Part shown: piece by piece, positions 760-61,770 of the stretch
Numbering within the stretch: the stretch's first letter is position 1
Layout: every line of letters starts with the position of its first letter
From: Laetmonice hystrix
Taxonomy: Eukaryota
Assembly (NCBI GenBank): GCA_965235115.1
Contig: OZ249436.1
Span: forward strand, 28,708,001 to 28,772,000
Reading direction: 5' to 3'
DNA: 64,000 nucleotides
The notes under the pieces: generated by a model
Databases searched by the model: none
Told to the model about the DNA's origin: nothing
The model's input: the letters and a program-made list of their open reading frames with translations, nothing else
Made by a program: the position numbers and the translations under genes

Positions 760-1210
760 TGCCTCACTAAATCAAATGTTTCATCAATTCTTTGGATGGG
801 TACAAACTGCGGTGACTTAACTGCATTTAAACCTCGGTAGTCTATGTCTAATCCTGTGACTTGCCATCCGCCTTTGCTATCAGAAAGGATGGCGAGGCCC
901 ATGCACCTGATGTACATGGCTCTAATACACCAAGATCAATTTGTTCCTGGGCCGGTTTGTCTAATTTATCCCTCATTTTGGGAGACAAGCAATATGGAAG
1001 TTTATGGTTTGTGGGAACCACTGGAACTGTCTCAATTTCATGTTCAACCAAATCAGTGCATCCCAGTCTCCCATCTGGTCTCAAAAAGGCGTCCGAATTT
1101 TGTGCTGAAATATCTTGTAAAGCTTTCGTTTGTTCTGGTGTTAGGTTAGCTTTTGATAGATCAACCTGAGGTATATGTGAGGAATGCTCTGTCTGATGTA
1201 TGCTAAATAT
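760..1210 (-). pseudogene. Gypsy/Ty3 LTR retrotransposon pol fragment (N-terminal reverse transcriptase)
   Basis: LTPEQ...LGCTDLVEHEIET...PYCLSP...GVLEPCTSGAWASPSFLIAKADGK, continuing after a frameshift as IDYRGLNAV...PIQRIDETFD (845 down to ~765). These are canonical Gypsy RT N-terminal motifs. Confidence 0.9.
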
Positions 1211-1965
1211 TAGTCCATGGGCCAAGGGTTGAAACCCTCCCCCCCCCCGGGGGATTTTTGCAGACTACCATTTTTAGATACCCTGTGATATGCCATTCAA
1301 GAATCTGCTTGTCTGCACGAAAACTGTTGGTGGGTGAAGGCACTAGAGCAGATCAAAGTCGAAGTGGACATGCACATTTCACACGGCCAATTACAGGGTA
1401 GGGGAATAGTCGGGTAGCCAACCCAGGTAACCCGGAAATTTTTAGACCCGCAAGAGATTATGATTGATTTGTGTCCCTATAGGCTCTGTGAAGATTTTCA
1501 GCTTTGTTGGCCGAAGTTGGCTGTTGAGGAATTTTTTTTATAAGCTAATTTGCATAAATTAGCATAATTAATAACAAATCGTCATAAGCTCAGGTAACTT
1601 GAAAACCATTTGGCCTAGAATCATATGTAATAGCACTTTTCCATACAATATCAACACGGGGAATCCATTTGTGACATTTGTTTTGTGAATTAAGGTCAAG
1701 ATCAAGGTCAAATATCAAGGTCAAGGCCAAAAATGGCAAAAAAAACTGGGGTTTCCAGGACAGTTGGCCTAAAATCACATTTAATGGAGTGTTTCCTTAC
1801 AATATAGAGGCAGGCAATCCAATTATGGCATACGTCTTGTGATTCGACATTAAAGTCAAGGTCAAATGTCAAGGTCAAGGCCACAAGTGGCACAAATAGT
1901 CGGTTCGAAGTCCTTCTTTCCTGTAGTATCAGGGACATTTCAGCAGGAAACAAGCTCAAATTACG

Positions 1966-2315
1966 GACTACATGACTGGGGGCGGGGTGTGGGTGGGACT
2001 ACATGACTGGGGGTGTGGGTTAGTGAGGTGTGGGTGGGGCTGCATGACTGGGGGTGGAGGTTAGTGGGGTGTGGGTGGGACTACATGACTGGGGGTAGGG
2101 ATTAGTGGGGTGTGGGTGGGGCTACATGACCGGGGGTGGGGGTTAGTGGGGTGTGGGTGGGACTACATGACCGGGGGTGGGGGTTAGTGGCGTGTGGGTG
2201 GGACTACATGACTGGGGGCGGGGGTTAGTGGGGTGTGGGTGGGGCTACATGACTGGGGGTGGGGGTTAGTGGGGTGTGGGTGGGACTACATGAGTGGGAG
2301 TAGGGGTTAGTGGGG
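1966..2315 (+). repeat. 41-bp G-rich minisatellite in left foldback arm
   Basis: CATGACTGGGGGTGGGGGTTAGTGGGGTGTGGGTGGGACTA; CATG at 2043, 2084, 2125. Confidence 0.9.
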
Positions 2316-2596
2316 TTGTGCTGCAAGGTGTGGGGTGTGGGGTGTGGGTGGGTGTCTTGCAGGGTGTGGGGGTGGGGTGTGGGTGGGTGTCCTGCAGGGT
2401 GTGGGGTGTGGGTGTGGTTGGGTGTCCTGCAAGGTGTGGGGTGTGGGTGTGGGTGGGTGTCCTGGAGGGTGTGGGTTGGGGTGGGGATGGGGGTCCTGCA
2501 AGGTGTGGGGTGTGGGTGTGGGGTATGGGTGGGTGTCCTGCAGGGTGTGAAGTGTGGGTGGGGGTATGGGTGGGTGTCCTGCCAGGTGTAGGGTGC
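2316..2596 (+). repeat. ~35-40-bp G/T-rich minisatellite (TCCTGCAGGGTGTGGGGTGTGGGTG...)
   Basis: About 8 degenerate units anchored on (T)CCTGCA(A/G)GG. Confidence 0.85.
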
Positions 2597-2887
2597 TAAT
2601 GTGATGCTTAACGAGTAATGTGAGGATTATTGTGAGGATGGCGATGAAGATGGTGATGTCAAATGTACTAATATTTCATGATATCTGTACTGTAGTTAAC
2701 TTTCTGTTATTCAATAAATGATCAGTACGTTGTAACCCACAAATTTGTCCTAGAAATCCCGTTTTTCGACCTTAAATTTGACCTTTGACTTTGACCGAGC
2801 CTCTCACAATATCCCAGTTTTGGGCCATTTGTGGCCTTGACCTTGACCTTGACATTTGACCTCGACTTTAATGTCGAATCACAAGAT

Positions 2888-3250
2888 TCCCACCCACACC
2901 CCACTAAACCCCACCCCCGGTCATGTAGTCCCACCCACACCCCACTAACCCCCCACCCCCAGTCATGTAGCCCCACCCACACCCTCTAACCCCCACCCCC
3001 AGTCATGTAGTCCCACCCACATCCCACTAACCCCCACCCCCCGTCATTTAGTCCCACCCACACCCCACTAACCCCCACCCCCAGTCATGTAGCCCCACCC
3101 ACACCCCACTAACCCCTACCCCCAGTCACGTAGTCCCACCCACACCCCACTAACCCCCACCCCCAGTCATGCAGCCCCACCCACACCTCACTAACCCACA
3201 CCCCCAGTCATGTAGTCCCACCCACACCCCGCCCCCCAGTCATGTAGTCC
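2888..3250 (-). repeat. 41-bp minisatellite in right foldback arm (inverse of left)
   Basis: CCCAGTCATGTAGTCCCACCCACACCCCACTAACCCCCA units. Confidence 0.9.
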
Positions 3251-3800
3251 GTAATTTGAGCTTGTTTCCTGCTGAAATGTCCCTGATACTACAGGAAGGA
3301 AGGACTTCGGACCGACTATTTGTGCCATTTGTGGCCTTGACCTTGACATTTGACCTTGACTTTAATGTCGAATCACAAGACGTATGCCACAATTGGATTG
3401 CCTGCCTCTATATTGTAAGGAAACACTCCATTAAATGTGATTTTAGGCCAACTGTCCTGGAAACCCCAGTTTTTTTGCCATTTTTGGCCTTGACCTTGAT
3501 ATTTGACCTTGATCTTGACCTTGAATCACAAAACAAATGTCACAAATGGATTCCCCGTGTTGATATTGTATGGAAAAGTGCTAATACATATGATTCTAGG
3601 CCAAATGGTTTTCAAGTTACCTGAGCTTATGACGATTTGTTATTAATTATGCTAATTTATGCAAATTAGCCTTCACCCACCAACAGTTTTCGTGCAGACA
3701 AGCAGATTCTGGAATGGCATATCACAGGGTATCTAAAAATGGTAGTCTGCAAAAATCCCCCGGGGGGGGGGGAGGGTTTCAACCCTTGGCCCATGGACTA

Positions 3801-4710: not shown

Positions 4711-7410
4711 CCATTGGGTAGAGGGAGGGTGTTGGCTGAGTGGTTCGGGGTAATGTCTAAGGGCCAGTCAGCCATATCATGTGGATTGGGAAGAGGGAGG
4801 GTGTTGGCTGAGTGGTTCGGGGTAATGTCTGAGGGCCAGTCAGCCATATAATGGGGATTGGGAAGAGGGAGGGTGTTGGCTGAGTGGTTCGGGGTAATGT
4901 CTGAGGGACAGTCAGCCATATCATGGGGATTGGTAAGAGGCAGGGTGTTGGCTGAGTGGTTCGGGGTAATGTCTGAGGGACAGTCAGCCATATCATGGGG
5001 ATTGGGAAGAGGGAAGGGCCAGTCAGCCATATCATGGGGATTGGGAAGAGGGAGGGTGTTGGCTGAGTGGTTTGGGGTAATGTCTAAGGGCCAGTCAGCC
5101 ATATCATGGGGATTGGGAAGAGGGAGGGTGTTAGCTGAGTGGTTCGGGGTAATGTCTGAGGGACAGTCAGCCATATCATGGGGATTGGGAAGAGGGAAGG
5201 GCCACACAGCCATATCATGGGGATTGGGAAGAGGGAGGGTGTTGGCTGAGTGGTTAGGGGTAATATCTGAGGGCCAGTCAGCCATATCATGGGGATTGGG
5301 AAGAGGGAGGGTGTTGGCTGAGTGGTTCGGCGTAATGTCTAAGGTCCAGTCAGCCATATCATTTGGATTGGGAAGAGGGAGGGTGTTGGCTGAGTGGTTC
5401 GGTGTAATGTCTGAGGGCCAGTCAGCCATATCATGGGGATTGAGAAGAGGGAGGGTGTTGGCTGAGTGGTTCAGGGTAATGTCTCAGGGACAGTCAGCCA
5501 TATCATGGGGATTGGGAAGAGGGAGGGTGTTGGCCGAGTGGTTCGGGGTAATGTCTGAGGGACAGTCAGCCATATCATGGGGATTGGGAAGAGGGAAGGG
5601 CCAGTCAGCCATATCATGGGGATTGGGACGAGGGAGGGTGTTGGCTGAGTGGTTCGGGGTAATGTCTGAGGGACAGTCAGCCATATCATGGGGATTGGGA
5701 AGAGGGAAGGGCCAGTCAGCCATATCATGGGGATTGGGAAGAGGGAGGGTGTTGGCTGAGTGGTTCGAGGTAATGCCTAAGGGCCAGTCAGCCATATCAT
5801 GGGGATTGGGAAGGGGGAGGGTGTTGGCTGAGTGGTTCGGGGTAATGTCTGAGGGACAGTCAGCCATATCATGGGGATTGGGAAGAGGGAAGGGCCAGTC
5901 AGCCATATCATGGGGATTGGGAAGAGGGAGGGTGTTGGCTGAGTGGTTTGGGGTAATGTCTCAGGGACAGTCAGCCATATCATGGGGATTGGGAAGAGGG
6001 AGGGTGTTGGCTGAGTGGTTCGGGGTAATGTCTGAGGGCCAGTCAGCCATATAATGGGGATTGGGAAGAGGGAGGGTGTTGGCTGAGTGGTTCGGGGTAA
6101 TGTCTGAGGGACAGTCAGCCATATCATGGGGATTGGTAAGAGGCAGGGTGTTGGCTGAGTGGTTCGGGGTAATGTCTGAGGGACAGTCAGCCATATCATG
6201 GGGATTGGGAAGAGGGAAGGGCCAGTCAGCCATATCATGGGGATTGGGAAGAGGGAGGGTGTTGGCTGAGTGGTTTGGGGTAATGTCTCAGGGACAGTCA
6301 GCCATATCATGGGGATTGGGAAGAGGGAGGGTGTTGGCCGAGTGGTTCGGGGTAATGTCTGAGGGACAGTCAGCCATATCATGGGGATTGGGAAGAGGGA
6401 AGGGCCAGTCAGCCATATCATGGGGATTGGGACGAGGGAGGGTGTTGGCTGAGTGGTTCGGGGTAATGTCTGAGGGACAGTCAGCCATATCATGGGGATT
6501 GGGAAGAGGGAAGGGCCAGTCAGCCATATCAGGGGGATTGGGAAGAGGGAGGGTGTTGGCTGAGTGGTTCGAGGTAATGCCTAAGGGCCAGTCAGCCATA
6601 TCATGGGGATTGGGAAGGGGGAGGGTGTTGGCTGAGTGGTTCGGGGTAATGTCTGAGGGCCAGTCAGCCATATCATGGGGATTGGGAAGAGGGAGGCTGT
6701 TGGCTGAGTGGTTTGGGGTAATGTCTAAGGGCCAGTCAGCCATATCATGGGGATTGGGAAGAGGAAGGGTGTTGGCTGGGTGGTTCCGGGTAATGTCTAA
6801 GGGCCAGTCAGCCATATCATGGGGATTGGGAAGGGGGAGGGTGTTGGCTGAGTGGTTCGGGGTAATGTCTGAGGGCCAGTCAGCCATATCATGGGGATTG
6901 GGAAGAGGGAGGGTGTTGGTTGAGTGGTTCGGGGTAATGTCTGAGGGCCAGTCAGTCATATCATAGGGATTGGGAAGAGGGATGGTGTTCGCTGAGTGGT
7001 TCGGGGTAAAGTCTGAGGGCCAGTCAGCCATATCATGGGGATTGGGAAGAGGGAGGGATTTGGCTGAGTGGTTCGGGGTAATGTCTGAGGGCCAGTCAGC
7101 CATATCATGGGGATTGGGTAGAGGGAGGGTGTTGGCTGAGTGGTTCGGGGTAATGTCTGAGGGCCAGTCAGCCATATCATGGGGATTGGGAAGAGGGAGG
7201 GTGTTGGCTGAGTGGTTCAGGGTAATGACTAAGCGCCAGTCAGCCATATCATGGGGATGGGGAAAAGGGAGGGTGTTGGCTGAGTGGTTCGGGGTAACAT
7301 CTGAGGGCCAGTCAACCATATCATTGGGATTGGAAAGAGGGGGGAAGCTGTTGGCTGAGTGGTTAGGGATATCGTCACATGGCCAGTTAGCCATATTATA
7401 GGGGTTGGGA
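4711..7410 (+). repeat. 72-bp G-rich minisatellite with interspersed 39-bp deletion variants
   Basis: Unit GGGGATTGGGAAGAGGGAGGGTGTTGGCTGAGTGGTTCGGGGTAATGTCTGAGGGCCAGTCAGCCATATCAT; 24-aa and 13-aa periodicity in the ORF track. Confidence 0.97.
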
Positions 7411-8796
7411 ATTCGAGTCATCTTATCATCATTTATGATCATTGTCATTCCCCATGGGGCCCGGGGAACAATAGGCCCCATTCGTTTCATCACCCTGTGG
7501 GAGGGAGTGTGGGGAAGGTGTTGGTTGTGTGGTTAGATGTAATGTCTGATGGCCAGACAGCCACAGCATGTGGATTGGGAAGGGGATGAGATGTCGGCTA
7601 ACTTTTTGGAGGGAATGTCTGAAGACCAATTAGTCATGTCAGGGATTGGGAAGGGGGATATAGGATTGGTTGGAGGTGGTAGTATAGAAGAAAAACGAAA
7701 AATAGCCCAAAAAATAAAAAGAGAAAAAAAATGAAACAAAAGTTTGTGGGTAATGGATGTCGCAGTACTGAGATATGTCTGCTGGGTGTTTATATCAAGG
7801 TTAATTTGATTTCGCTGTACTGGAGTGTCACTCTGGGTGGTTGGAGGTGGTAGTATAGGAGAAAAGGGGAAAAATACCCAAAAAATCACAAAAGAAAACA
7901 ATGAAAAAAAGTTTGTGGGTGTTGACACTTCAGATGAAATATCTGCACTGTGTTACGACGCCACCCCAGCAGACATGTAATTCTTGTCTTGTTGTAACTG
8001 AATGACTATAGTAAAAATCAACAATGATGAATTTGGTTGAGTGGTTAGAGGTAATGTCTTAGGGCCAGACAGCCGTATCATGGGGATTAGGAAGAGGGAA
8101 GGTGTTGGCTGAGACGTTCGGGATAATGTCTTAAGGCCAGTCGGCCATATCATGGGGATTGTGAAGGGATGAAGTTGTTGGCTGAGTGGTTCGGTGTAAT
8201 GTCTGAGGGCCAGTCAGCCATATCATGGGGATTGGGAAGAGGGAGGGTGTTGGCTGAGTGGTTCGGGGTAATGTCTGAGGGGCAGTCAGCCATATCATGG
8301 GGATTGGGAAGGGGGAGGGTGTTGGCTGAGTGGTTCGGGGTAATGTCTAAGGGCCAGTCAGCCATATCATGGGGATTGGGTAGAGGGAGGGTGTTGGCTG
8401 AGTGGTTCGGGGTACTGTCTAAGGGCCAGTCAGCCATATCATGGGGATTGGAAAGAGGGAGGGTGTTGGCTGAGTGGTTCAGGGTAATGTCTGAGGGACA
8501 GTCAGCCATATCATGGGGATTGGGAAGAGGGAGGGTGTTGGCTGAGTGGTTCGGGGTAATGTCTGAGGGCCAGTCAGCCATATCATGGGGATTGGGAAGA
8601 GGGAGGGTGTTGGCTGAGTGGTTCGGGTAAAGTCTGAGGGCCAGTCAGCTATATCATGGGGATTGGGAAGAGGGAGGGTGTTGGCTGAGTGGTTCGGGGC
8701 AATGCTGAGGGCCAGTCAGCCATATCATGGGGATAGGGAAGAGGGAGGGTGTTGGCTGAGTGGTTCGGGGTAATGTCTAAGGGCCAGTCAGCCATA
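7321..8796 (+). repeat. 1476-bp higher-order unit (degenerate monomers + ~0.7-kb spacer + 72-bp monomers), intact copy
   Basis: 7321-8012 recurs at 8797-9486 (ORF pairs 7359/8835 and 7549/9025 are offset by 1476); 8013 onward recurs at 61771 onward. Confidence 0.92.
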
Positions 8797-9486
8797 TCAT
8801 TGGGATTGGAAAGAGGGGGGAAGGTGTTGGCTGAGTGGTTAGGGATATCGTCACATGGCCAGTTAGCCATATTATAGGGGTTGGGAATTCGAGTCATCTT
8901 ATCATCATTTATGATCATTGTCATTCCCCGTGGGGCTCGGGGAACAATAGGCCCCATTCGTTTCATCACCCTGTGGGAGTGAGTGTGGGGAAGGTGTTGG
9001 TTGTGTGGTTAGATGTAATGTCTGATGGCCAGACAGCCACAGCATGTGGATTGGGAAGGGGATGAGATGTCGGCTAAGTGTTTGGAGGGAATGTCTGAAG
9101 ACCAATCAGTCATGTCAGGGATTGGGAAGGGGGATATAGGATTGGTTGGAGGTGGTAGTATAGAAGAAAAACGAAAAATAGCCCAAAAAATCAAAAGAGA
9201 AAAAAATGAAACAAAAGTTTGTGGGTAATGGATGTCGCAGTACTGAGGTATGTCTGCTGGGTGTTTATATCAAGGTTAATTTGATTTCGCTGTACTGGAG
9301 CGTCACTCTGGGTGGTTGGAGGTGGTAGTATAGAAGAAAAGGGGAAAAATACCAAAAAATACCAAAAGAAAACAATGAAAAAAAGTTTGTGGGTGTTGAC
9401 CCTTCAGATGAAATATCTGCACTGTGTTACGACGCCACCCCTGCACACATGTAATTCTTGTCTTGTTGTAACTGAATAACTATAGT
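8797..9486 (+). repeat. Second higher-order unit, left part (interrupted at 9486)
   Basis: Near-identical to 7321-8012; ends ...ACTATAGT immediately before element A. Confidence 0.92.
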
Positions 9487-9926
9487 AACTAGACATGCAG
9501 ATTGCAGGCAATCAGGTATCCCGTTCCTCTATGGATGTATCTAGAAAGGTTCTGTATAGCATGAAAGCAAGTGAGTCATACCAATAATGAGCATAGGGTT
9601 ACAAGAGAAAGACTGTGGGGAAGGTATATTCCAAATCTGGAGAAGATTCTCCAAAAAATGAGGGAGTAGATGCATTTTGACCAGTAATGAGCATAGGGTA
9701 CCGACAGACCACTTAGACACCTGTGTACACAAAAATTTCTTCCAAATAAAAAATATAAAAATGAATACCAAAAAAAAGGGTTGACATAGGTGGGATTTTT
9801 AGGCAATACCCTTGTCATAAAATTACCACACATCTGTTCACACACATATTTTGTAGAGTGTTTCTGTAAATTCATGACCACAGTAATTAAGAACTAAGTA
9901 GAAAATATTCAAAAAAAATAAAAATC

Positions 9927-9999
9927 ATGCCATGGGTAGGATTCGAATCCATGACCCTTGGCAAGAAAGTCCTACACTCTACCACAGCACCATCCGTAC
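9927..9999 (-). ncRNA. tRNA-derived Pol III module (degenerate), copy 1
   Basis: Minus strand GTACGGATGGTGCTGTGGTAGAG...GGATTCGAATCC with A-box/B-box-like motifs followed by T-runs. Stems are imperfect, so not a functional tRNA. Confidence 0.6.
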
Positions 10000-10186
10000 A
10001 CGCAGACAATTAGTAGAGTCCTGCAATAAATGAATGACCATTGCCATTGGCATAGAAGTAAACAACGATGAATTACATCATACCGGGGAGACGCCATACC
10101 AGGCTAAAAAAGGTCCCCTATTGTAAGAGAGCTATTTACCAAGATTACCGGAGGTAGAACATATATAAAAAAATTGAAAAAATCTT

Positions 10187-10259
10187 TTGTCACAGGTGGG
10201 ATTCGAACCCGAGACCTCTGGCATGAAGATCATAGACTCTACCACTAAGCCATCCGGGC
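10187..10259 (-). ncRNA. tRNA-derived (tRNA-Lys-like 5' end) Pol III module, copy 2
   Basis: Minus strand GCCCGGATGGCTTAGTGGTAGAG...GGGTTCGAATCCC then TTTTTT. Consensus A and B boxes; the acceptor stem does not close. Confidence 0.7.
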
Positions 10260-10907
10260 ACACACTCAATTTGTTGAGTGTTGCTGTAAATGAATCACCA
10301 TAGTGGTAGAGAACTGTGTGTTACGTCATACCATCGTTACGTCATAGCAGGCTTATAAAGGACGCCTAGTGGAAGAGAATTATGCCATTATCATTAGATA
10401 TCAACGAAATTCCACGAACTTCCTCATTACATGCAAAATAGACAAAATTCAAAGTCACGTGACTCAGCGATATGACGTCATATTTTAAAAAAAACTGCCA
10501 TCAATCGATCCGCCCCACTATGACGAAGCTATAAATCAAATTTGGAGAAGATTCTGTAAAAAATGAAGGAGTAGATAGATTTTGACTGTTTTCTATGGCT
10601 TGACCTGTATGTCAGAAAGGTCAAAGGTCAAAGGTCAAATGTATGTGGTAAATGATAAAGGTACAAGTCCTAAGTGAGATGACATGAATAACTTTTGTCT
10701 ATCTCTGACTGGAAGTGTACCACATGATCTCAAAGTTGCCGCACATAATACGTCATAACATGACGTCATGACGTCATATGACATATTCCATCATATGTTG
10801 AGGTCTCCATGTCATGATGTATCTAGCCTGAAAGTTTCATCCAGATATCTTGAAAACTGAGGGAGATATTGACCCGACCTTAACTACAACAATAATAATA
10901 ATAATAA

Positions 10908-17530: not shown

Positions 17531-19063
17531 CAAGACACAGAGATCTGAATAGTGGCAGGTCACCAATTTGACCTTTCAATGTCACTCCAGAGAAAAAAAG
17601 ATGGCGCTAATTGAAAGCCCATATATGACTTCCTATCCATGTTTAATAGTAACCATGGGCCTAACATGCGCGGTTTCCAAGATACAGAGCTCTGAATATT
17701 GGCAGGTGACCAATTTGACCTTTCAAGGTCACTCCAGAGAAATAAAAATGGCGCCAAATGAAAGGCCATATATGACTTCCTATCCATGTTTAATAGTAAC
17801 TATTGGCCTATTGTGCATGGTTTCCAAGATACAGAGCTTTGAATATTGGCAGGTCACGGATTTGACCTTTCAAGGTCACTCCAGAGAAATAAAAATGGCG
17901 CCAAATGAAATGCCATATATGACTTCCTATCTATGTTTATTAGTAACTATGGGCCTATTGTGCACGGTTTCAAAGATACAGAGCATTGAATATATGTAGG
18001 TCATGGATTTGACCTTTCAAGGTCACTGTAGCGAAGTACTAATGGCGCCAAATGAAAGGCCATATATGACTTCCTATCTATGTTTAATAGTAACTATGGG
18101 CCTATTGTGCACGGTTTCCAAGATACAGAGCATTGAATATATGTAGGTCATGGATTTGACCTTTCAAGGTCACTGTAGCGAAGTACAAATGGCGCCAAAT
18201 GAAAGGCCATATATGACTTCCTATCCTTGATTAATAGTAACTATGGGCCTATTGTGCATGGTTTCCAAGATACAGAGCATTGAATATATGTAGGTCATGG
18301 ATTTGACCTTTCAAGGTCACTGTAGCGAAGTACAAATGGCGCCAAATGAAAGGCCATATATGACTTCCTATCCTTGATTAATAGCAACTATTGGCCTATT
18401 ATGCATTGTTTTCATGTTACAGGCGATTCCATATATTGCAACTAATTTTGCCAAAGGTCAAAGGTCACAGGGTCAATTATGAAAAAAATCATTGAAACAT
18501 GTTTTATGTATGACAGGCTAACACACCTGTCTTAAAATAGCTTAGATATTGCTTAGATATTGCATAGATGCAAAATGTTATATTCTCTATGCAAACATAC
18601 CATATTCGCATGTTTAAAGTCACGTGACAGGGTGAAACTAGGTCAAGTCGAAAAATCCAGCCAAACTTTTAAGCACCCTCCTATCAGGACCCTCTGTGCC
18701 CAATTTGGTGAAATTTTATTGAAAATTGAGGGAGAAGATACGTTTTAAGCGTTTTCCTACCTCTGACCTAATTTCGACTAAGGGCAAAGGTCACAGGTCA
18801 ACTTCACCTAGAAAATTATTAGTGAACTTAATGTTCATCAGATGGCATTAACGCTTCTTGAGTATCTTTTCAGAGCACTATGAAAAACGACTTCAAAATT
18901 TAGCTGAAAAACGCCAATATTACGTCATAAAACGTCCAAATTACGTCCTATGACGTAATGCATCTGGGTGCCAGGTGTGCTTGCCTAGGTGAAGCTTCTG
19001 TCCAAGTTTCATTCAGATACCTTAAAAACTGAGCGAACGGCCAGCCTTGTCTTACTACAGGAA

Positions 19064-19064
<1 letters not shown>
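17531..19064 (-). mobile_element. Family B body 5, truncated on the CTAG side
   Basis: (AAT)nAA joins directly to internal CAAGACACAGAG. Confidence 0.85.
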
Positions 19065-24258: not shown

Positions 24259-25733
24259 AAATAAAGATGGCGCCGAATGAAAGCCCATATATGACTTCCT
24301 ATCCATGATTAACAGTAACCATGGGCCTAACATGCACGGTTTCCAAGATACAGAGCTCTGAATATTGGCAGGTGACCAATTTGACCTTTCAAGGTCACTC
24401 CAGAGAAATAAAAATGGCGCCAAATGAAAGGCCATATATGACTTCCTATCCATGTTTAATAGTAACTATTGGCCTATTGTGCATGGTTTCCAAGATACAG
24501 AGCTATGAATATTGGCAGGTCATGAATTTGACCTTCCAAGGTCACTACAGAGAAATAAGAATGGCGCCAAATGAAATGCCATATATGACTTCCTATCTAT
24601 GTTTAATAGTAACTATGGGCCTATTGTGCACGGTTTCCAAGATACAGAGCATTGAATATATGTAGGTCATGGATTTGACCTTTCAAGGTCACTGTAGCGA
24701 AGTACAAATGGCGCCAAATGAAAGGCCATATATGACTTCCTATCTATGTTTAATAGTAACTATGGGCCTATTGTGCACGGTTTCCAAGATACAGAGCATT
24801 GAATATATGTAGGTCATGGATTTGACCTTTCAAGGTCAACTGTAGCAAAGTACAAATGGCGCCAAATGAAAGGCCATATATGACTTCCTATCCTTGATTA
24901 ATAGTAACTATGGGCCTATTGTGCATGGTTTCCAAGATACAGAGCATTGAATATATATGTAGGTCATGGATTTGACCTTTCAAGGTCACTGTAGCGAAGT
25001 ACAAATGGCGCCAAATGAAAGGCCATATATGACTTCCTATCCTTGATTAATAGCAACTATTGGCCTATTATGCATTGTTTTCATGTTACAGGCGATTCCA
25101 TATATTGCAACTAATTTTGCCAAAGGTCAAAGGTCACAGGGTGAATTATGAAAAAAATCATTGAAACATGTTTTATGTATGACAGGCTAACACACCTGTC
25201 TAAAATAAGCTTAGATATTGCTTAGATATTGCATAGATGCAAAATGTTATATTCTCTATGCAAACATACCATATTCGCATGTTTAAAGTCACGTGACAGG
25301 GTGAAACTAGGTCAAATCGAAAAATCCAGCCAAACTTTTAAGCACCCTCCTATCAGGAGCCTCTGTGCCCAATTTGGTGAAATTTTATTGAAAATTGAGG
25401 GAGAAGATACGTTTTAAGCGTTTTCCTACCTCTGACCTAATTTCGACTAAGGGCAAAGGTCACAGGTCAACTTCACCTAGAAAATTATTAGTGGACGTAA
25501 TGTTCATCAGATGGCCTTAACACTTCTTGAGTATCTTCTCAGAGCACTATGAAAAACGACTTCAAAATTTAGCTGAAAAACGCCAATATTACGTCATAAA
25601 ACGTCCAAATTACGTCCTATGACGTAATGACTCTGGGTGCCAGGTGTCCTTGCCTAGGTGAACCTTCTGTCCAAGTTTCATTCAGATACCTTAAAAACTG
25701 AGCGAATGGGCGGCCTTGTCTTACTACAGGAAG
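24259..25733 (-). mobile_element. Family B body 9, truncated on the CTAG side
   Basis: (AAT)n joins internal AAATAAAGATGGCGCCG. Confidence 0.85.
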
Positions 25734-28413: not shown

Positions 28414-30755
28414 CTAGCGCCGATGTGGCCAAGGCCAACATCTTATATCCCATCCCCCATAAATGAACAATGAGAGGCCCATTATGATGTTAGATGTGTC
28501 TTTACATTATCGATATTGGTGTTAATCGAAAATCGCTGTCACCTAATATAAGGTTTCAATAGTAACCATAGCTCTATCTGGCCACGTTTCAGAGTTATAG
28601 CTGTTTAAATAATATTGGTGATCTATCAATGACGTCATTATGACGTAATACGTCTACCTACGTCATCAGTATTACTGTCAATCGAAGGAGCATCTATGAC
28701 TTTCTATATGACCTCAATTATAGTAACCATAGCTCTATCTCGCTTAGTTTCAGAGTTACAGCAATGTGTATCTGCAATAGTCAATTTTAACAATTTCAAG
28801 GTCATGTAGTTCTGCTAAAATAGGTCAAATTTCTTATTGGTGAAGTTTTCCAGTAAAGATTCCTACAGAAGATCTGTTAACCAAAAATTCTCAGATTTTC
28901 TCTGAAAATGGCGGAGCAGTAGCGACTTCACCACTTTAGAGCATGTGACCTATGACGTAATACGTCTACCTACGTCATCAGTATTACTGTCAATCGAAGG
29001 AGCATCTATGACTTTCTATATGACCTCAATAGTAACCATAGCTCTATCTCACTTAGTTTCAGAGTTACAGCAATGTGTATCTGCAATAGTCAATTTAAAC
29101 AACTTCAAGGTCACGTAGTTCTGCTAAAATAGGTCAAATTGCTTATTACTGAAGTTTTCCAGACCTCCAGCTGCCCACAGGAAGCCTGTCATCTAAATAT
29201 TTTCTGATTTTCTCCAAAACTGGTGGAGCAGTACCGATTTCACCACTTTAGAGCATGTGACCTACTTTTACATGACGTCAGAGGATATAGGTCAAAATAA
29301 TGGACATAAGTAAGCAGGGTCTATGCAGGATTATTATTCTATGAAAAGTTTGAGAAAACTATGGAATATGGTTTGAAGAAATGCCTCTAAGTTTAAAATA
29401 CAAATTACGTCATGACGTCATGATGTGACGTCATATGACGTGATAATTATATGGGTCGATTTTCTCTACCATGGTGAATGTCCCTGCCAAGTTTCATTTG
29501 GATATCTCTATAAATGACTGAGATAGCATATCTATGACGTCATTATGACGTAATACGTCAGCCTACGTCATCGGTATATGTGTCAATTGAAAGAGCATCT
29601 ATGACTTCCTATATGACCTCAATAGTAGCCATGGCTCTATCTGGCTTTATTTTAGAGTTACAGCAATGTGCATCTGCAATAGTGAATTTTAACAAATTCA
29701 AGGTCACGTGGTTCTGCCAAATTAGGTCAGATCGCTTATTGGTGAAGTTTTCCAGTAAAGCTGGCTAGAGAGAGCCTGTCAACCCAAAATTGTCAGATTT
29801 TATCTAAAAATGGCGGAGCAGTAGCGGTTTGGCCACTTTCGGACGTGTGACCTACTTTTTCATGACATCAAAGGTCAAAGGTCAAAATCATGAGGATTAC
29901 TAAAAAAGGCCTATCTCGATTATTAAGCTATGAAACGTTTTGGGAAACTATGGATTATGGCTTCAAGAAATGACTATAAGTCTAAAATGCAAAATACGTC
30001 ATGACGTCATGACGTAACGTCATATGACGTAATAATTATATAGGTCGATTCTCTCTACCATGGTGAATGTCCCTGCCAAGTTTCATATGAATATCTCTAT
30101 AAATGACTGAGATAGTATATCTATGACGTCATTATGACGTAATACGTCACCCTACGTCATCGGTATCTGTGTCAATTGAAAGAGCATCTATGACTTCCTA
30201 TACGACTTCAATAGTAACCATGGCTCTATCTCGCTTTATTTTAGAGTTACAGCAATGTGCATCTGCAATAGTGAATTTTAACAACTTCAAGGTCACGTGG
30301 TTCTGCCAAATTAGGTCAGATTACTTATTGGTGAAGTTTTCCAGTAAAGCTGGCTAGAGAGAGCCTGTCAGCCCAAAATTGTCAGATTTTATCTAAAAAT
30401 GGCGGAGCAGTAGCGGTTTGGCCACTTTCCGACGTGTGACCTACTTTTTCATGACATCAAAGGTCAAAGGTCAAAATCACGAGGATTACTAAAAAGGGTC
30501 AATGCCCGATTATTAGGCTATGAAAGGTTTTGGGAAACTATGGATTATAGCTTCAAGAAATGCCTATAAGTCTAAAATGCAAAATACGTCATGACGTCAT
30601 GACGTGACGTCATATGACGTAATAATTATATGGGTCGATTCTCTCTATCATGGTGAATGTCCCTGCCAATTTCATTTGGATATCTTTAAAAATGACTGAG
30701 ATGGACGCACAAATGCAACTACTACAACTACTACTACTACTACTACTACGGGAAT
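28414..30755 (-). mobile_element. Family C HINE-like body 1
   Basis: CTAG end, palindrome GATGTGGCC-AA-GGCCAACATC, subterminal ATCCCATCCCCC, ~589-bp internal repeats (ORFs at 29580/30169), ends (ACT)n-GGGAAT. Confidence 0.8.
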
Positions 30756-32662
30756 TATATCCCATCCCCCATAAATGAACAAAGAGAGGCCCATTATGAT
30801 GTTAGATGTGTCTTTACATTATCGATATTGGTGTTAATCGAAAATCACTGTCACCTAATATAAGGTTTCAATAGTAACCATAGCTCTATCTGGCCACGTT
30901 TCAGAGTTATAGCTGTTTAAATAATATTGGTGACCTATCAATGACGTCATTATGACGTAATACGTCTACCTACGTCATCAGTATTACTGTCAATCGAAGG
31001 AGCATCTATGACTTTCTATATGACCTCAATAGTAACCATAGCTCTATCTCACTTAGTTTCAGAGTTACAGCAATGTGTATCTGCAATAGTCAATTTTAAC
31101 AACTTCAAGGTCACGTAGTTCTGCTAAAATAGGTCAAATTGCTTATTATTGAAGTTTTCCAGTAAAGCTGCCCACAGGAAGCCTGTCATCTAAAAATTGT
31201 CTGATTTTCTCCAAAAATGGTGGAGCAGTAGCGATTTCACCACTTTGGAGCATGTGACCTACTTTTACATGACGTCAGAGGATATAGGTCAAAATAATGG
31301 ACATAAGTAAGCAGGGTCTATGCAGGATTATTATTCTATGAAAAGTTTTAGGAAACTATGGAATATGCTTTGAAGAAATGCCTCTAAGTTTAAAATACAA
31401 ATTACGTCATGACGTCATGAGGTGACGTCATATGACGTAATAATTATATCGGTCGATTCTCTCTACCATGGTGAATGTCCCTGCCAAGTTTCATATGGAT
31501 ATCTCTCTAAATGACTGAGATAGTATATCTATGACGTCATTATGACGTAATACGTCAGCCTACGTCATCGGTATATGTGTCAATCGCTTATTGGTGAAGT
31601 TTTCCAGTAAAGCTGCCTACAGAGATCCTGTCAACCCAAAATTGTCAGATTTTATCTAAAAATGGCGGAGCAGTAGCGGTTTAACCACTTTTAGATGTGT
31701 GACCTACTTTTCCATGATATCAAAGGTCAAAGGTCAAAATCATGAGGATTACTAAAAAGGGTCTATGCCCGATTATTAGGCTATGAAAAGTTTAGGGAAA
31801 CTATGGATTATGGCTTCAAGAAATGACTATTAGTCTAAAATGCAAAATACGTCATGACGTCATGACGTGACGTCATATGACGTAATAATTATATAGGTCA
31901 ATTTTCTCTACCATGTTGAATGTCCCTGCCAAGTTTCATATGGATATCTCTATAAATGACTGAGATAGTATATCTATGACGTCATTATGACGTAATACGT
32001 CACCCTACGTCATCGGTATATGTGTCAATTGAAAGAGCATCTATGACTTCCTATACGACTTCAATAGTAACCATGGCTCTATCTCGCTTTATTTTAGAGT
32101 TACAGCAATGTGCATCTGCAATAGTGAATTTTAACAACTTCAAGGTCACGTGATTCTGCCAAAATAGGTCAGATCGCTTATTGGTGAAGTTTTCCAGTAA
32201 AGCTGCCTACAGAGATCCTGTCAACCCAAAATTGTCAGATTTTATCTAAAAATGGCGGAGCAGTAGCGGTTTGGCCACTTTCGGACGTGTGACCTACTTT
32301 TTCATGACATCAAAGGTCAAAGGTCAAAATCATGAGGATTACTAAAAATGGTCAATGCCCGATTATTAGGCTATGAAAGGTTTTGGAAAACTATGGATCA
32401 TAGCTTCAAGAAATGCCTATAAGGCTAAAATGCAAAATACGTCATGACGTCATGACGTGACGTCACATGACGTAATAATTATATGGGTCGATTCTCTCTA
32501 CCATGGTGAATGTCCCTGCCAAGTTTCATTTAGATATCTTTAAAAATGACTGAGATGGACGCACAAATGCAACTACTACAACTACTACTACGGGAATAAT
32601 AATAATACGGAAGACGAAACCATACAACTATAAAATCCCATCCCCCATGGGGGGGATGGGAT
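30756..32662 (-). mobile_element. Family C body 2 (lacks outer ~30 bp) + terminal hairpin module
   Basis: Starts at TATATCCCATCCCCC; ends (ACT)n, (AAT)n, GACGAAACCATACAA, hairpin ATCCCATCCCCC-ATGG-GGGGGATGGGAT (32635-32662). Confidence 0.8.
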
Positions 32663-34362: not shown

Positions 34363-35399
34363 CCAGAGAAATAAAAATGGCGTCAAATGAAAGGCCATAT
34401 ATGACTTCCTATCCATGTTTAATAGTAACTATTGGCCTATTGTGCATGGTTTCCAAGATACAGAGCTTTGAATATTGGCAGGTCACGGATTTGACCTTTC
34501 AAGGTCACTGTAGCGAAGTACAAATTGCGCCAAATGAAAGGCCATATATGACTTCCTATCTATGTTTAATAGTAACTATGGGGCTATTGTGCACGGTTTC
34601 CAAGATACAGAGCATTGAAAATATGTAGGTCATGGATTTGACCTTTCAAGGTCACTGTAGCGAAGTACAAATGGCGCCAAATGAAAGGCCATATATGACT
34701 TCCTATCCTTCATTAATAGCAAATATTGGCCTATTATGCATTGTTTTCATGTTACAGGCGATTCCATATATTGCAACTAATTTTGCCAAAGGTCAAAGGT
34801 CACAGGGTCAATTATGAAAAAAATCATTGAAACATGTTTTATGTATGACAGGCTAACACACCTGTCTAAAATAAGCTTAGATATTGCTTAGATATTGCAT
34901 AGATGCAAAATGTTATATTCTCTATGCAAACATACTATATTCGCATGTTTAAAGTCACGTGACAGGGTGAAACTAGGTCAAATCGAAAAATCCAGCCAAA
35001 CTTTTAAGCACCCTCCTATCAGGACCCTCTGTGCCCAATTTGGTGAAATTTTATTGAAAATTGAGGGAGAAGATACGTTTTAAGCGTTTTCCTACCTCTG
35101 ACCTAATTTCGACTAAGGGCAAAGGTCACAGGTCAACTTCACCTAGAAAATTATTAGTGGACTTAATGTTCATCAGATGGCATTAACGCTTCTTGAGTAT
35201 CTTCTCAGAGCACTATGAAAAACGACTTCAAAATTTAGCTGAAAAACGCCAATATTACGTCATAAAACGTCCAAATTACGTCCTATGACGTAATGCATCT
35301 GGGTGCCAGGTGTCCTTGCCTAGGTGAATCTTCTGTCCAAGTTTCATTCAGATACCTTAAAAACTGAGCGAATGGGCAGCCTTGTTTTACTACAGGAAG
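34363..35399 (-). mobile_element. Family B body 12, truncated on the CTAG side
   Basis: (AAT)nAA joins CCAGAGAAATAAAAATGG. Confidence 0.85.
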
Positions 35400-38377: not shown

Positions 38378-39585
38378 GCAGGTCACCAATTTGACCTTTC
38401 AAGGTCACTCCAGAGAAATAAAAATGGCGCCAAATGAAAGGCCATATATGACTTCCTATCCATGTTTAATAGTAACTATTGGCCTATTGTGCATGGTTTC
38501 CAAGATACAGAGCTTTGAATATTGGCAGGTCACGGATTTGACCTTTCAAGGTCACTCCAGAGAAATAAAAATGGCGCCAAATGAAATGCCATATATGACT
38601 TCCTATCTATGTTTAATAGTAACTATGGGCCTATTGTGCACGGTTTCAAAGATACAGAGCATTGAATATATGTAGGTCATGGATTTGACCTTTCAAGGTC
38701 ACTGTAGCGAAGTACAAATGGCGCCAAATGAAAGGCCAAATATGACTTCCTATCCTTGATTAATAGCAACTATTGGCTTATTTTGCATTGTTTTCAAGTT
38801 ACAGGCGATTTCCATATATTGCAACTAATTTTGCCAAAGGTCAAAGGTCACAGGGTCAATTCTGAAAAAAAAAATCATTGAAACATGTTTTATGTATGAC
38901 AGGCTAACAAACCTGTCTAAAATATGCTTAGATATTGCTTAGATATTGCATAGATGCAAAATTTTATATTCTCTATGCAAACATACCATATTCACATGTT
39001 TAAAGTCACGTGACAGGATGAAACTAGGTCAAATCGAAAAATCCAGCCAAACTTTTAAGCACCCTCCTATCAGGAGCCTCTGTGCCCAATTTGGTGAAAT
39101 TTTATTGAAAATTGAGGGAGAAGATACGTTTTAACCGTTTTCCTAACTCTGACCTAATTTCGACTAAGGGCAAAGGTCAGAGGTCAACTTTACCTAGAAA
39201 ATTATTAGTGGACTTAATGTTCATTAGATGGCATTAACGCTTCTTGAGTATCTTCTCAGAGCACTATGAAAAACGACTTCAAAATTTAGCTGAAAAACGC
39301 CAATATTACGTCATAAAACGTCCAAATTACGTCCTATGACGTAATGCATCTGGGTGCCAGGTGTCCTTGCCTAGGTGAACCTTCTGTCCAAGTTTCATTC
39401 AGATACCTTAAAAACTGAGCGAACGGCAAGCCTTGTCTTACTACAGGAAGAATAATAATAATAATAGTGTACACGAAACCATACAACAACAAAATCCCAT
39501 TTCCACAGAGTGGAAATGGGATAATAATAGTGTACACGAAACCATACAACAACAAAATCCCATTTCCACAGAGTGGAAATGGGAT
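38378..39585 (-). mobile_element. Family B body 15 (truncated on the CTAG side) + two hairpin modules (39467, 39530)
   Basis: (AAT)nAA joins GCAGGTCACC. Confidence 0.85.
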
Positions 39586-42689: not shown

Positions 42690-44811
42690 CTAGAGCGATG
42701 GGTTGCTGGGCAACACCAAATCCCATTTCCTGTATCATGGGAGGGCAAGGACAAAAGCAGGTGACATTTAAGAAAAAACATCTAAACTTAATTCCTATGC
42801 ATGTTTAATAGTACCTATGTGCTTATCATCCATCGTTTCCAAGATACAAAATCTATATATTGGCGGGACATAGATTTGACCTTTCAAGGTCACTGTATTG
42901 AAATAAAGATGGCGCCGAATGAAAGGCCATATATGACTTCCTATCCATGATTAATAGTAATCATGGACCTAGCTTGCACGGTTTCCAAGATACAGAGCTC
43001 TGAATATTGGCAGGTCACCAATTTGACCTTTCAAGGTCACTCCAGAGAAAAAAAGATGGCGCCAACTGAAAGCCCATATATGACTTCCTATATATGATTA
43101 ACAGTAACCACGGGCCTAACATGCACGGTTTCCAAGATACAAAGCTCTGAATATTGGCAGGTCACCAATTTGACCTTTCAAGGTCACTCCAGAGAAAAAA
43201 AGATGGCGCTAACTGAAAGCCCATATATGACTTCCTATATATGATTAACAGTAACCACGGGCCTAACATGCACGGTTACCAAGATACAGAGCTCTGAATA
43301 TTGGCAGGTCACCAATTTGACCTTTCAAGGTCACTCCAGAGAAATAAAAATGGCGCCAAATGAAAGGCCATATATGACTTCCTATCCATGTTTAATAGTA
43401 ACTATTGGCCTATTGTGCATGGTTTCCAAGATACAGAGCTTTGAATATTGGCAGGTCACGGATTTGACCTTTCAAGGTTTACAGAGAAATAAAAATGGCG
43501 CCAAATGAATTGCCATATATATCTTCATATCTATGTTTATTAGTAACTATGGGCCTATTATGCACGGTTTCAAAGATACGGAGCATTGAATATATGTAGG
43601 TCATGGATTTGACCTTTCAAGGTCACTGTAGCTAAGTACAAATGGCGCCAAATGAAAGGCCATATATGACTTCCTATCTATGTTTAATAGTAACTATGGG
43701 CCTATTGTGCACGGTTTCCAAGATACAGAGCATTGAATATATGTAGGTCATGGATTTGACCTTTCAAGGTCACTGTAGCGAAGTACAAATGGCGCCAAAT
43801 GAAAGGCCATATATGACTTCCTATCTATGTTTAATAGTAACTATGGGCCTATTGTGCACGGTTTCCAAGATACAGAGCATTGAATATATGTAGGTCATGG
43901 ATTTGACCTTTCAAGGTCACTGTAGCGAAGTACAAATGGCGCCAAATGAAAGGCCATATATGACTTCCTATCCTTGATTAATAGTAACTATGGGCCTATT
44001 GTGCATGGTTTCCAAGATACAGAGCATTGAATATATGTAGGTCATGGATTTGACCTTTCAAGGTCACTGTAGCGAAGTACAAATGGCGCCAAATGAAAGG
44101 CCATATATGACTTCCTATCCTTGATTAATAGCAACTATTGGCCTATGATGCATTGTTTTCATGTTACAGGCGATTCCATATATTGCAACTAATTTTGCCA
44201 AAGGTCAAAGGTCACAGGGTCAATTATGAAAAAAATCATTGAAACATGTTTTATGTATGGCAGGCTAACACACCTGTCTTAAATAAGCTTAGATATTGCT
44301 TAGATATTGCATAGATGCAAAATGTTATATTCTCTATGCAAACATACCATATTCGCATGTTTAAAGTCACGTGACAGGGTGAAACTAGGTCAAATCGAAA
44401 AATCCAGCCAAACTTTTAAGCACCCTCCTATCAGGACCCTCTGTGCCCAATTTGGTGAAATTTTATTGAAAATTGAGGGAGAAGATACGTTTTAAGCGTT
44501 TTCCTACCTCTGACCTAATTTCGACTAAGGGCAAAGGTCACAGGTCAACTTCACCTAGAAAATTATTAGTGGACTTAATGTTCATCAGATGGCATTAACG
44601 CTTTTTGAGTATCTTCTCAGAGCACTATAAAAAACGACTTCAAACTTTAGCTGAAAAACGCCAATATTACGTCATAAAACGTCCAAATTACGTCCTATGA
44701 CGTAATGCATCTGCGTGCCAGGTGTCCTTGCCTAGGTGAACCTTCTGTCCAAGTTTCATTCAGATACCTTAAAAACTGAGCGAACGGCCAGCCTTGTCTT
44801 ACTACAGGAAG
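42690..44811 (-). mobile_element. Family B body 18
   Basis: Same termini; long internal array. Confidence 0.85.
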
Positions 44812-49823: not shown

Positions 49824-51630
49824 ATATATTGGCGGGACATAGATTTGCCCTTTCAAGGTCACTGTATTGAAATAAAGATGGCGCCGAATGAAAGGCCATA
49901 TATGACTTCCTATCCATGATTAATAGTAATCATGGACCTAGCTTGCACGGTTTCCAAGATACAGAGTTCTGAATATTGGCAGGTCACCAATTTGACCTTT
50001 CAAGGTCACTCCAGAGAAAAAAAGATGGCGCCAACTGAAAGCCCATATATGACTTCCTATATATGATTAACAGTAACCACGGGCCTAACATGCACGGTTT
50101 CCAAGATACAGAGCTCTGAATATTGGCAGGTCACCAATTTGACCTTTCAAGGTCACTCCAGAGAAATAAAAATGGCGCCAAATGAAAGGCCATATATGAC
50201 TTCCTATCCATGTTTAATAGTAACTATTGGCCTATCGTGCATGGTTTCCAAGATACAGAGCTCTGAATATTGGCAGGTCACCAATTTGACCTTTCAAGGT
50301 CACTCCAGAGAAAAAAAGATGGCGCTAACTGAAAGCCCATATATGACTTCCTATATATGATTAACAGTAGCCACGGGCCTAACATGCACGGTTTCCAAGA
50401 TACAGAGCTCTGAATATTGGCAGGTCACCAATTTGACCTTTCAAGGTCACTCCAGAGAAATAAAAATGGCGCCAAATGAAAGGCCATATATGACTTCCTA
50501 TCCATGTTTAATAGTAACTATTGGCCTATTGTGCATGGTTTCCAAGATACAGAGCTTTGAATATTGGCAGGTCACGGATTTGACCTTTCAAGGTCACTCC
50601 AGAGAAATAAAAATGGCGCCAAATGAAATGCCATATATGACTTCCTATCTATGTTTAATAGTAACTATGGGCCTATTGTGCATGGTTTCAAAGATACAGA
50701 GCATTGAATATATGTAGGTCATGGATTTGACCTTTCAAGGTCACTGTAGCGAAGTACAAATGGCGCCAAATGAAAGGCCAAATATGACTTCCTATCCTTG
50801 ATTAATAGCAACTATTGGCTTATTTTGCATTGTTTTCAAGTTACAGGCGATTTCCATATATTGCAACTAATTTTGCCAAAGGTCAAAGGTCACAGGGTCA
50901 ATTCTGAAAAAAAAAATCATTGAAACATGTTTTATGTATGACAGGCTAACAAACCTGTCTAAAATATGCTTAGATATTGCTTAGATATTGCATAGATGCA
51001 AAATTTTATATTCTCTATGCAAACATACCATATTCACATGTTTAAAGTCACGTGACAGGATGAAACTAGGTCAAATCGAAAAATCCAGCCAAACTTTTAA
51101 GCACCCTCCTATCAGGAGCCTCTGTGCCCAATTTGGTGAAATTTTATTGAAAATTGAGGGAGAAGATACGTTTTAACCGTTTTCCTAACTCTGACCTAAT
51201 TTCGACTAAGGGCAAAGGTCACAGGTCAACTTTACCTAGAAAATTATTAGTGGACTTAATGTTCATTAGATGGCATTAACGCTTCTTGAGTATCTTCTCA
51301 GAGCACTATGAAAAACGACTTCAAAATTTAGCTGAAAAACGCCAATATTACGTCATAAAACGTCCAAATTACGTCCTATGACGTAATGCATCTGGGTGCC
51401 AGGTGTCCTTGCCTAGGTGAACCTTCTGTCCAAGTTTCATTCAGATACCTTAAAAACTGAGCGAACGGCAAGCCTTGTCTTACTACAGGAAGAATAATAA
51501 TAATAATAGTGTACACGAAACCATACAACAACAAAATCCCATTTCCACAGAGTGGAAATGGGATAATAATAATAGTGTACACGAAACCATACAACAACAA
51601 AATCCCATTTCCACAGAGTGGAAATGGGAT
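49824..51630 (-). mobile_element. Family B body 22 (truncated on the CTAG side) + two hairpin modules (51509, 51575)
   Basis: (AAT)nAA joins ATATATTGGCGGG. Confidence 0.85.
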
Positions 51631-60274: not shown

Positions 60275-61477
60275 CCAGAGAAATAAAAATGGCGCCAAAT
60301 GAAAGGCCATATATGACTTCCTATCCATGTTTAATAGTAACTATTGGCCTATTGTGCATGGTTTCCAAGATACAGAGCTTTGAATATTGGCAGGTCACGG
60401 ATTTGACCTTTAAAGGTCACTCCAGAGAAATAAAAATGGCGCCAAATGAAATGCCATATATGACTTCCTATCTATGTTTATTAGTAACTATGGGCCTATT
60501 GTGCACGGTTTCAAAGATACAGAACATTGAATATATGTAGGTCATGGATTTGACCTTTCAAGGTCACTGTAGCGAAGTACAAATGGCGCCAAATGAAAGG
60601 CCATATATGACTTCCTATCTATGTTTAATAGTAACTATGGGCCTATTGTGCACGGTTTCCAAGATACCGAGCATTGAATATATGTAGGTCATGGATTTGA
60701 CCTTTCAAGGTCACTGTAGCGAAGTACAAATGGCGCCAAATGAAAGGCCATAATATGGCCATATAATATATTATATGACTTCCTATCCTTGATTAATAGC
60801 AACTATTGGCCTATTATGCATTGTTTTCATGTTACAGGTGATCATATATTGGAACTAATTTTGCCAAAGGTCAAAGGTCACAGGGTCAATTATGAAAAAA
60901 ATCATTGAAACATGTTTTATGTATGACAGGCTAACACACCTGTCTAAAATAAGCTTAGATATTGCTTAGATATTGCATAGATGCAAAATGTTATATTCTC
61001 TATGCAAACATACCATATTCGCATGTTTAAAGTCACGTGACAGGGTGAAACTAGGTCAAATCGAAAAAATCCAGCCATACTTTTAAGCACCCTCGTATCA
61101 GGAGCCTCTCTACCCAATTTGGTGAAATTTTATTGAAAAATGAGGGAGAAGATACGTTTTAAGCGTTTTCCTACCTCTGACCTAATTTCGACTAAGGTCA
61201 AAGGTCACAGGTCAACTTCACCTAGAAAATTATTAGTCGACTTAATGTTCATCAGATGGCAGTAACGCTTTTTGCATATCTTCTCAGAGCACCATGAAAA
61301 TGGACTTCAAAATTTAGCTGAAAAACGCCAATATTACGTCATAAAACGTCCTAATTACGTCCTACGACGTAATGCATCTGGGTGCCAGGTGTCCTTGCCT
61401 AGGTGAACCTTCTGTCCAAGTTTCATTCAGATACCTTAAAAACTGAGCGAACGGCCAGCCTTGTTTTACTACAGGAA

Positions 61478-61515
<38 letters not shown>

Positions 61516-61703: not shown

Positions 61704-61713
61704 AATAATAATA

Positions 61714-61770
61714 GTGTACACCCAAACCGTACAATTTCAGGATCCCGTTCCTCAGTCGGAGGAACGGGAT
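61714..61770 (-). mobile_element. Displaced terminal hairpin module of element A
   Basis: GTGTACACCCAAACCGTACAATTTCAGG-ATCCCGTTCCTC-AGTCG-GAGGAACGGGAT; the stem equals the motif at 9518-9529. Confidence 0.9.

Follow-up and report, generated by a model that had tools for sequence, protein, structure and literature searches.

An empty twin site marks the junction, and does not date the arrival, of a probable Helentron-type element in Laetmonice hystrix

In the window (the whole 64-kb stretch of Laetmonice hystrix DNA that was analysed), one copy of a spacer is intact and its neighbour is interrupted by a 52,284-nt insert (9487-61770), and the comparison of both provides a real and clean empty-site control for the outermost element of this insert, designated A. 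The method is standard, the result is the expected one and comparisons of this kind are already in print. Considering the explanation as a whole, A is probably a 1.5-kb non-autonomous HLE2 element (Helentron/Helitron2-type, HINE) lying on the minus strand; it belongs to an already described type of rolling-circle transposon, and its landing site is ordinary for that type. The twin copy is a valid control for the junction and not a clock.

The letters at the intact and the interrupted site were as the original prediction had given them (Table 1). The empty and the filled site differed by the insert, which carried two extra A, and no flanking nucleotide was lost. When the joined flanks of the filled site were aligned to the intact site leaving out the two A, 292 matches, 5 mismatches and no gaps were obtained over 297 columns, whereas keeping the two A produced one 2-nt gap. 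No flank sequence was missing at the junction. The proposed single entry point with two extra A is supported, as is the AA/TT target. Moreover, the 14-mer opening the right flank occurred in the window only at 8013 and 61771, so that the correspondence between the empty and the filled site is not due to chance. Two parts of the same claim were overstated. The insertion point is not exact, because TAA is found at both ends of the insert and the joint may slide 1 nt to the left and 2 nt to the right, resulting in four equivalent registers. In addition, the absence of a longer TSD had been proposed, but a 3-nt TAA repeat is formally there; nothing beyond it flanks the A insert, and within this formal 2-3-nt repeat a 2-bp duplication and an element-borne TT look alike.

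Table 1. Features of the window in forward-strand order; position 1 is the first letter of the window.
Positions	Strand	Feature	Remark
4713-7380	+	Left array of the G-rich 72-bp satellite, with 39-bp deletion units	
7320-8012	+	Spacer copy 1, left of the site	17 mismatches and 2 gaps against 8796-9486
8007-8022	+	Intact (empty) site: TATAGT 8007-8012, five A 8013-8017, TCAAC 8018-8022	Read directly
8013-8761	+	Copy 1, right half, comprising degenerate edge units and the middle array	Colinear with 61771-62989 except for two unit-number gaps
8382-8761	+	380-nt exact match to 62610-62989	Switch to the left-array-end unit follows at about 8762-8800
8781-9486	+	Final satellite unit plus spacer copy 2, which together flank the insertion on the left	
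		Filled site: TATAGT 9481-9486, AA 9487-9488, CTAG from 9489; GGGAT ends at 61770, five A from 61771	
9486-9488	+	TAA, left joint; its AA, reading TT on the minus strand, most likely stems from the host target	Inferred from truncated B copies
9489-10890	-	Body of element A: 3' end CTAG 9489-9492, palindrome 9500-9513, 3' subterminal repeat 9518-9529	
10891-10907	-	Left stub of the (AAT)n tract of A, landing site of the stack	
10908-61703	-	Stack: 28 B bodies, of which 22 keep the full CTAG end and 6 are truncated, each containing 147-bp central repeats, plus 18 B heads (57 nt each); all in one orientation	
17531-19064	-	Truncated B5, new 3' end CTTG adjoining TT	
24259-25733	-	Truncated B9, adjoining TT	
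28414-32662	-	Element C: two bodies (inner junction near 30750), one head	
34363-35399	-	Truncated B12, new 3' end CTGG adjoining TT	Same breakpoint as B28
38378-39450	-	Truncated B15, adjoining TT	
49824-51492	-	Truncated B22, adjoining TT	
60275-61478	-	Truncated B28, adjoining TT	
61704-61713	-	Right stub of the (AAT)n tract of A	
61714-61770	-	Head (5' end) of element A: perfect 12-bp hairpin, arms 61742-61753 and 61759-61770	
61771-61772	-	The extra AA, which reads TT on the minus strand and most likely forms the 5' terminus of A; formally, a 2-bp duplication would do as well	Inferred
61771-64000	+	Right flank, with the remainder of the site, degenerate edge units and the 72-bp array on the right	

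Read on the minus strand, A was composed of TT, a 12-bp hairpin, an (ATT)n tract 57 nt in, the body, a subterminal repeat, a 6-bp palindrome, CTAG and TT. The 12-nt subterminal repeat at the CTAG end recurred in the hairpin at 61742-61770, and the two outer ends therefore belong together; no second copy of A was found within the 64-kb window. The elements inserted in it, B and C, followed the same plan with repeats of their own and were only about 70% identical to A, over about 120 nt. Each of the three presented a 5' hairpin with a stem of 12-13 bp (-13 to -16 kcal/mol for the folded ends), exact subterminal inverted repeats (12 nt in A, 11 nt in B and 12 nt in C) located 29-33 nt from CTAG, and a palindrome with stems of 5-6 bp between the 3' subterminal repeat and the 3' end. 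A microsatellite, (AAT)n, was found 57 nt from the 5' end, and central repeats were of 147 bp in B and, in a diverged form, of 260 bp in A. The predicted Helentron-type identity of the insert is supported by these subterminal repeats, hairpins and palindromes and by the TT flanks. In A, C and the 22 full B copies, CTAG was followed by TT, which corresponds to the joining of a CTRR-3' end to a host T in canonical Helitrons (HLE1), whereas the 5' end, with TT followed by a hairpin, departed from the HLE1 pattern of a 5'-TC start without inverted repeats. No transposase, autonomous partner or long non-repeat ORF was found in the block, in which all ORFs of at least 120 aa derived from repeats.

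Two observations concern the central repeats. The 147-bp unit of B (11010-60757) has the length of nucleosome core DNA. The diverged 260-bp repeats of A (9917-10301, minus strand) showed, by eye, motifs resembling the A and B boxes of tRNA genes; ARAGORN detected no tRNA gene in A, and Rfam returned only chance-level matches, including a 13-nt T-loop match at E=0.23. The central repeat of A is possibly SINE-derived.

The same termini were weighed against a cut-and-paste origin. PIF/Harbinger MITEs are characterized by terminal inverted repeats at both very ends and by a 3-bp TAA/TTA duplication. In fact, TAA formally flanks A and every closed B, as MITE-like transposons duplicating TAA (PIF/Harbinger-like) would leave it, and a duplication of TT, the other form that such elements might take, was the older reading of DINE-1 (PMC2374699). 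However, terminal inverted repeats were not found at both ends, since the repeat at the CTAG end is internal by 29-33 nt, and the T of the formal TAA duplication is a base paired in the hairpin stem of the head end. Moreover, copies devoid of the CTAG end kept the same register, which a two-ended DDE reaction would not give. A MITE-like nature of these elements is thus very improbable.

In the proposed mechanism, a RepHel transposase encoded elsewhere would paste A into a stretch of five T within one member of a multi-copy spacer family. The CTAG 3' end of A adjoins a TT of the host, and A would bring its own 5'-TT; the junction of host TT to CTAG, plus the 5'-TT of the element, would account for two extra A in the absence of any deletion or true duplication.

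The place of the terminal TT was best seen in the truncated members of the stack. The outer left ends of the 28 B, A and C were preceded by AA in 30/30 cases, and the heads were followed by AA in 20/20, the inner C junction, which is ambiguous in phase, being left out of the AA count. All six truncated B bodies were preceded by AATAA, at five distinct breakpoints, and in the full B copies the base upstream of the breakpoint was C, G or T, never A. As the truncated B copies abut AA that their own sequence does not supply, the left AA most likely belongs to the host and not to the element. Under random deletion, an AA phase at five independent breakpoints would have a probability of (1/3)^5 = 0.004, a figure drawn from five breakpoints and from truncations that could also be later deletions. 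New 3' ends of CTTG and CTGG were found at two of these five. The full copies fit insertion between T and T, and the five truncation breakpoints fit a cut before both T; since a T-and-T rule would give a single A and the truncated B copies show AA, the cut would fall between CTAG and TT, which assigns the extra TT to the hairpin end. The element would then be 5'-TT...CTAG-3', inserted before TT, that is, between A and TT for B and between T and TT for A. As all the targets carried TT, the junctions are explained equally well by a 2-bp duplication of TT and by a 5'-TT borne by the element. We consider it an even call that strand transfer in these HLE2 families links the 3' end, be it CTAG or a premature one, to a host TT, the extra TT being carried at the 5' hairpin end, which would correspond to the canonical chemistry between N and T instead of insertion between T and T or TT duplication, the (ATT)n behind each head giving the next targets between A and TT.

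Earlier studies placed these Ts in different ways. The same junctions could be read as insertion between T and T, WT insertion or TT duplication (PMC2374699), and HLE2 elements were said to insert between T and T (PMC11417382). The distribution of the terminal Ts was called unclear in PMC4067079, in which TT targets and ambiguous terminal Ts are stated, in agreement with what the original prediction had said of Helentrons. A published use of truncated copies to fix the register was not found in the literature searched, which comprised papers without their supplements and few subscription papers.

Several known systems resemble the present one. In DINE-1/HINE elements (Yang and Barbash 2008, PMC2374699; Thomas et al. 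2014, PMC4067079), as here, a 5' subterminal repeat with an adjacent inverted repeat, a 5' microsatellite, central repeats, a 3' subterminal repeat with a stem-loop and TT flanks were described, with boundaries set by empty sites and the same TT ambiguity. Their microsatellite is GTCY, whereas here it is (AAT)n, itself the target; unlike theirs, the ends described here carry CTAG, and the truncated copies point to a cut before both T rather than between them. Cg_HINE of Crassostrea gigas (PMC7492417) shares satellite-like central repeats, subterminal repeats of 11-12 nt, a preference for TT and the lack of a TSD, and many of its insertions into repetitive DNA were found through multi-hit empty sites. 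This likeness is one of description, and the available portion of that paper presents dispersed copies and describes no stack in their own microsatellite. The proto-Helentron of Phytophthora infestans (PMC4067079), 5'-TT...CTAG-3', inserts between A and T, which is the register proposed for B (between A and TT), unlike A, which entered between T and TT. In HLE1/Helraiser (PMC4778049), truncated ends of CTTG next to T were reported, as in B5, and end bypass was demonstrated; unlike the elements described here, Helraiser begins with TC and lacks subterminal inverted repeats. Self-insertion close to the 5' end, as well as composites in which the numbers of termini are unequal, was proposed for FoHeli (Helitron2) of Fusarium oxysporum (PMC5148889), similar to what is found here; the cases given there are few and show several 5' termini per one 3' terminus, while here bodies are in excess over heads, in about 30 events at one site.

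The (AAT)n tract of A was split into its two stubs by the stack of B and C, and all B and C insertions found lay in AAT tracts, even though B1 alone offers 36 TAA and 209 AA sites. Related B and C elements would insert by the same rule as A into the (AAT)n behind the heads of A and of each other, in one orientation, and the junction pattern would thus reflect sequential insertion. The B bodies were 0-6.3% apart and formed several groups (by eye) in scrambled order, which fits separate arrivals. Across the stack, bodies exceeded heads by 11. Pure Russian-doll nesting was rejected, as 10 B bodies remained unclosed under last-in-first-out pairing, and so was simple tandem amplification of one B, as adjacent bodies were no more alike than random pairs (P=0.62). 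B1 and B2, with one difference in the first 900 nt and 4.6% in the distal 720, appear to be a recombination mosaic. Recombination between copies, together with end bypass or head loss, would produce the excess of bodies.

A G variant was carried by 5/18 B heads (20505, 47929, 47992, 48055, 60138), which paired, last in first out, with B6, B20, B19, B18 and B27, all belonging to two of the groups recognized by eye; B5, in those two groups, has an A head. This pairing suggests real nesting, but the three adjacent heads, equally spaced at 63 nt, may be slippage copies. B18 and B27 (42690-44811, 58289-60116) were identical over the distal 720 nt, with one difference in the first 900, which seems to be the mark of very recent transposition or conversion.

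The presence of the locus in public contigs was surveyed with 8890-10900, which retrieved five runs, all as Logan contigs. Four were from one sample, possibly the source of the assembly and so not independent, and one was a marine metagenome (0.05 share); four of the five runs were examined. Taking contig depth as a rough contrast only and not as copy number, the listed spacer pieces had a depth of 417-1303, A pieces up to 8364, and the letter private to copy 2 about 37-40 (by subtraction). In three runs of one sample, the spacer and A were both seen to be repeats, and spacer contigs differed by up to about 10%. Contigs of two runs (X2 and X4) left copy 2 at 9487 into the intact-site flank with two letters changed (depth 234 and 692); the far side of that joint (9744) is probably spurious, and only the letters after 9487 were used. 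Thus, other empty paralogs exist and the empty state is the ancestral one, which supports an insertion rather than a precise loss. None of the 32 contig pieces listed, beside 3842 unlisted ones, bridged the left junction, which is uninformative given the small share, and a contig of run X1 over 9486-9709 (7 differences, depth 2.5) was left unused because it includes only three flank letters. Among 40 of 81 difference rows listed, two of the 17 differences between the spacer copies were polarised, both private to copy 2.

The two spacer copies had been described as higher-order copies and as a near-identical 1476-bp duplication. Only two copies were found, unevenly alike and in no periodic array, and the offset of 1476 holds upstream, while at the joint it is 1474. 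Near-identity applies to the 380-nt exact block on the right but not to the left of the joint, where the copies differed at 17/691 sites (2.5%) and by two one-base gaps, over 693 columns. To the right, 7 mismatches in 778 aligned columns and two unit-number gaps were observed (Fisher p=0.022 against the left, in a post hoc comparison). Dropping the columns past the crossover, the right side up to 8761 had 5/749 against 17/691 on the left (p=0.008, also post hoc). The 194-nt edge alone, with one difference, did not differ significantly from the left half (p=0.14); 8013-8381 held 5 differences and two unit-number gaps, and the exact block comprised 380 identical nucleotides where about 9 differences were expected (P ~9e-5). 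The middle array (8062-8780) first followed the right array from its start, two private 71-nt units included, before changing to the unit type of the left-array end; such a fusion of right-array start to left-array end is what unequal exchange between two chromatids is expected to yield. The empty twin would thus have come beside the insert by unequal exchange between 72-bp satellite arrays. Given the divergences on both sides and satellite homogenisation, the duplication does not appear to have a single age.

The order of events is less firmly drawn than the junction. We lean slightly to a duplication that came first, followed by entry of A into copy 2 and then by the stack, the identity on the right being due to later gene conversion between arrays. 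At 9014 and 9026, both copies have T although G accounts for 92-100% of contig depth, which makes them close relatives within the family, and conversion coming from the right flank would be expected to end where the insertion lies. The spacer divergence of 2.5% also exceeds the nearest-neighbour distance among B bodies, whose median is 0.4% and which is at most 1.25% for 23/28 and below 2.46% for 26/28; however, the distance is above 2.46% for 65% of the 378 B pairs, which is compatible only if the copies came from different sources. This order also needs a second event for the 380 identical nucleotides. The original prediction had A entering after the duplication and the whole cluster younger than it: the rare variants shared by the copies and the close neighbours of B bodies speak for this, but the order does not follow, since one of the two chromatids in the exchange could already have carried the insertion. 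It is accordingly a serious, though less probable, alternative that A, possibly together with a large part of the stack, was located on a haplotype that had only one spacer and that a recent unequal crossover with an empty haplotype placed the twin beside it, the 2.5% being allelic or paralog divergence. The middle array as a product of two-chromatid exchange, the closer right side (5/749 against 17/691) and the polymorphic, multi-copy spacer family agree with this course, which also requires a second event, recombination near the site, and is at odds with a 194-nt edge not significantly closer than the left half and with the 5 differences and two unit-number gaps still present in 8013-8381.

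There is also a slim chance that the tandem duplication is false, the assembler having crossed from an empty to a filled allele through the 72-bp satellite, with the twin being the other haplotype. The switch indeed lies inside homogeneous satellite, and the copy-2 letter at 9248 was absent from the examined contigs, but the letter of copy 2 at 8937 was present at a depth of about 37-40 in runs X3 and X4, and the duplicated part is shorter than 1.5 kb, which long reads would span. The junction stands even under such a false duplication, the twin then being a true empty allele.

Other features of the window were also recorded. The 72-bp satellite (4713-7380, 8062-8780, 61820-64000) has two open frames of up to 414 codons, and the frame is maintained through its 39-bp deletion units; a coding role is unsupported, as 71- and 73-nt units break the frame and no Pfam match above the cut-off was obtained. 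Internal satellite duplications were seen at an offset of 1203 in the left array (4833-5900 / 6036-6660) and as a 327-bp one in the right array (62107-62760), and, by eye, a diverged repeat about 180 nt long could be recognized within the spacer (7660-7920, 9135-9395). At 1219-3791 there is a foldback-like element with long inverted arms, 92-97% complementary, and G-rich repeats of 41 bp and 35 bp. Its left arm contains an extra piece of about 204 nt (about 1342-1545), with CTAG near the left end and an A/T run at the right, which the right arm does not have; the two arms thus offer another internal empty-site comparison, in which a GC overlap of 2 nt takes the place of AA. A 138-aa open frame (848-1264, minus strand), with no Pfam match, presumably recalls, by eye, the start of a Gypsy-type reverse transcriptase.

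For the study of such elements, the locus carries a caution, as a twin generated by satellite exchange fixes the junction and cannot date the insertion. The placement of the terminal Ts of Helentron-type elements was left open in what PMC2374699 and PMC4067079 offer on the matter, and the truncated members of the stack act as natural experiments that would fix the register, in a small test that is directly extendable and whose outcome so far favours a cut ahead of both T. If true, a cut before TT would align HLE2 strand transfer with that of canonical Helitrons and would correct the annotation of element boundaries.
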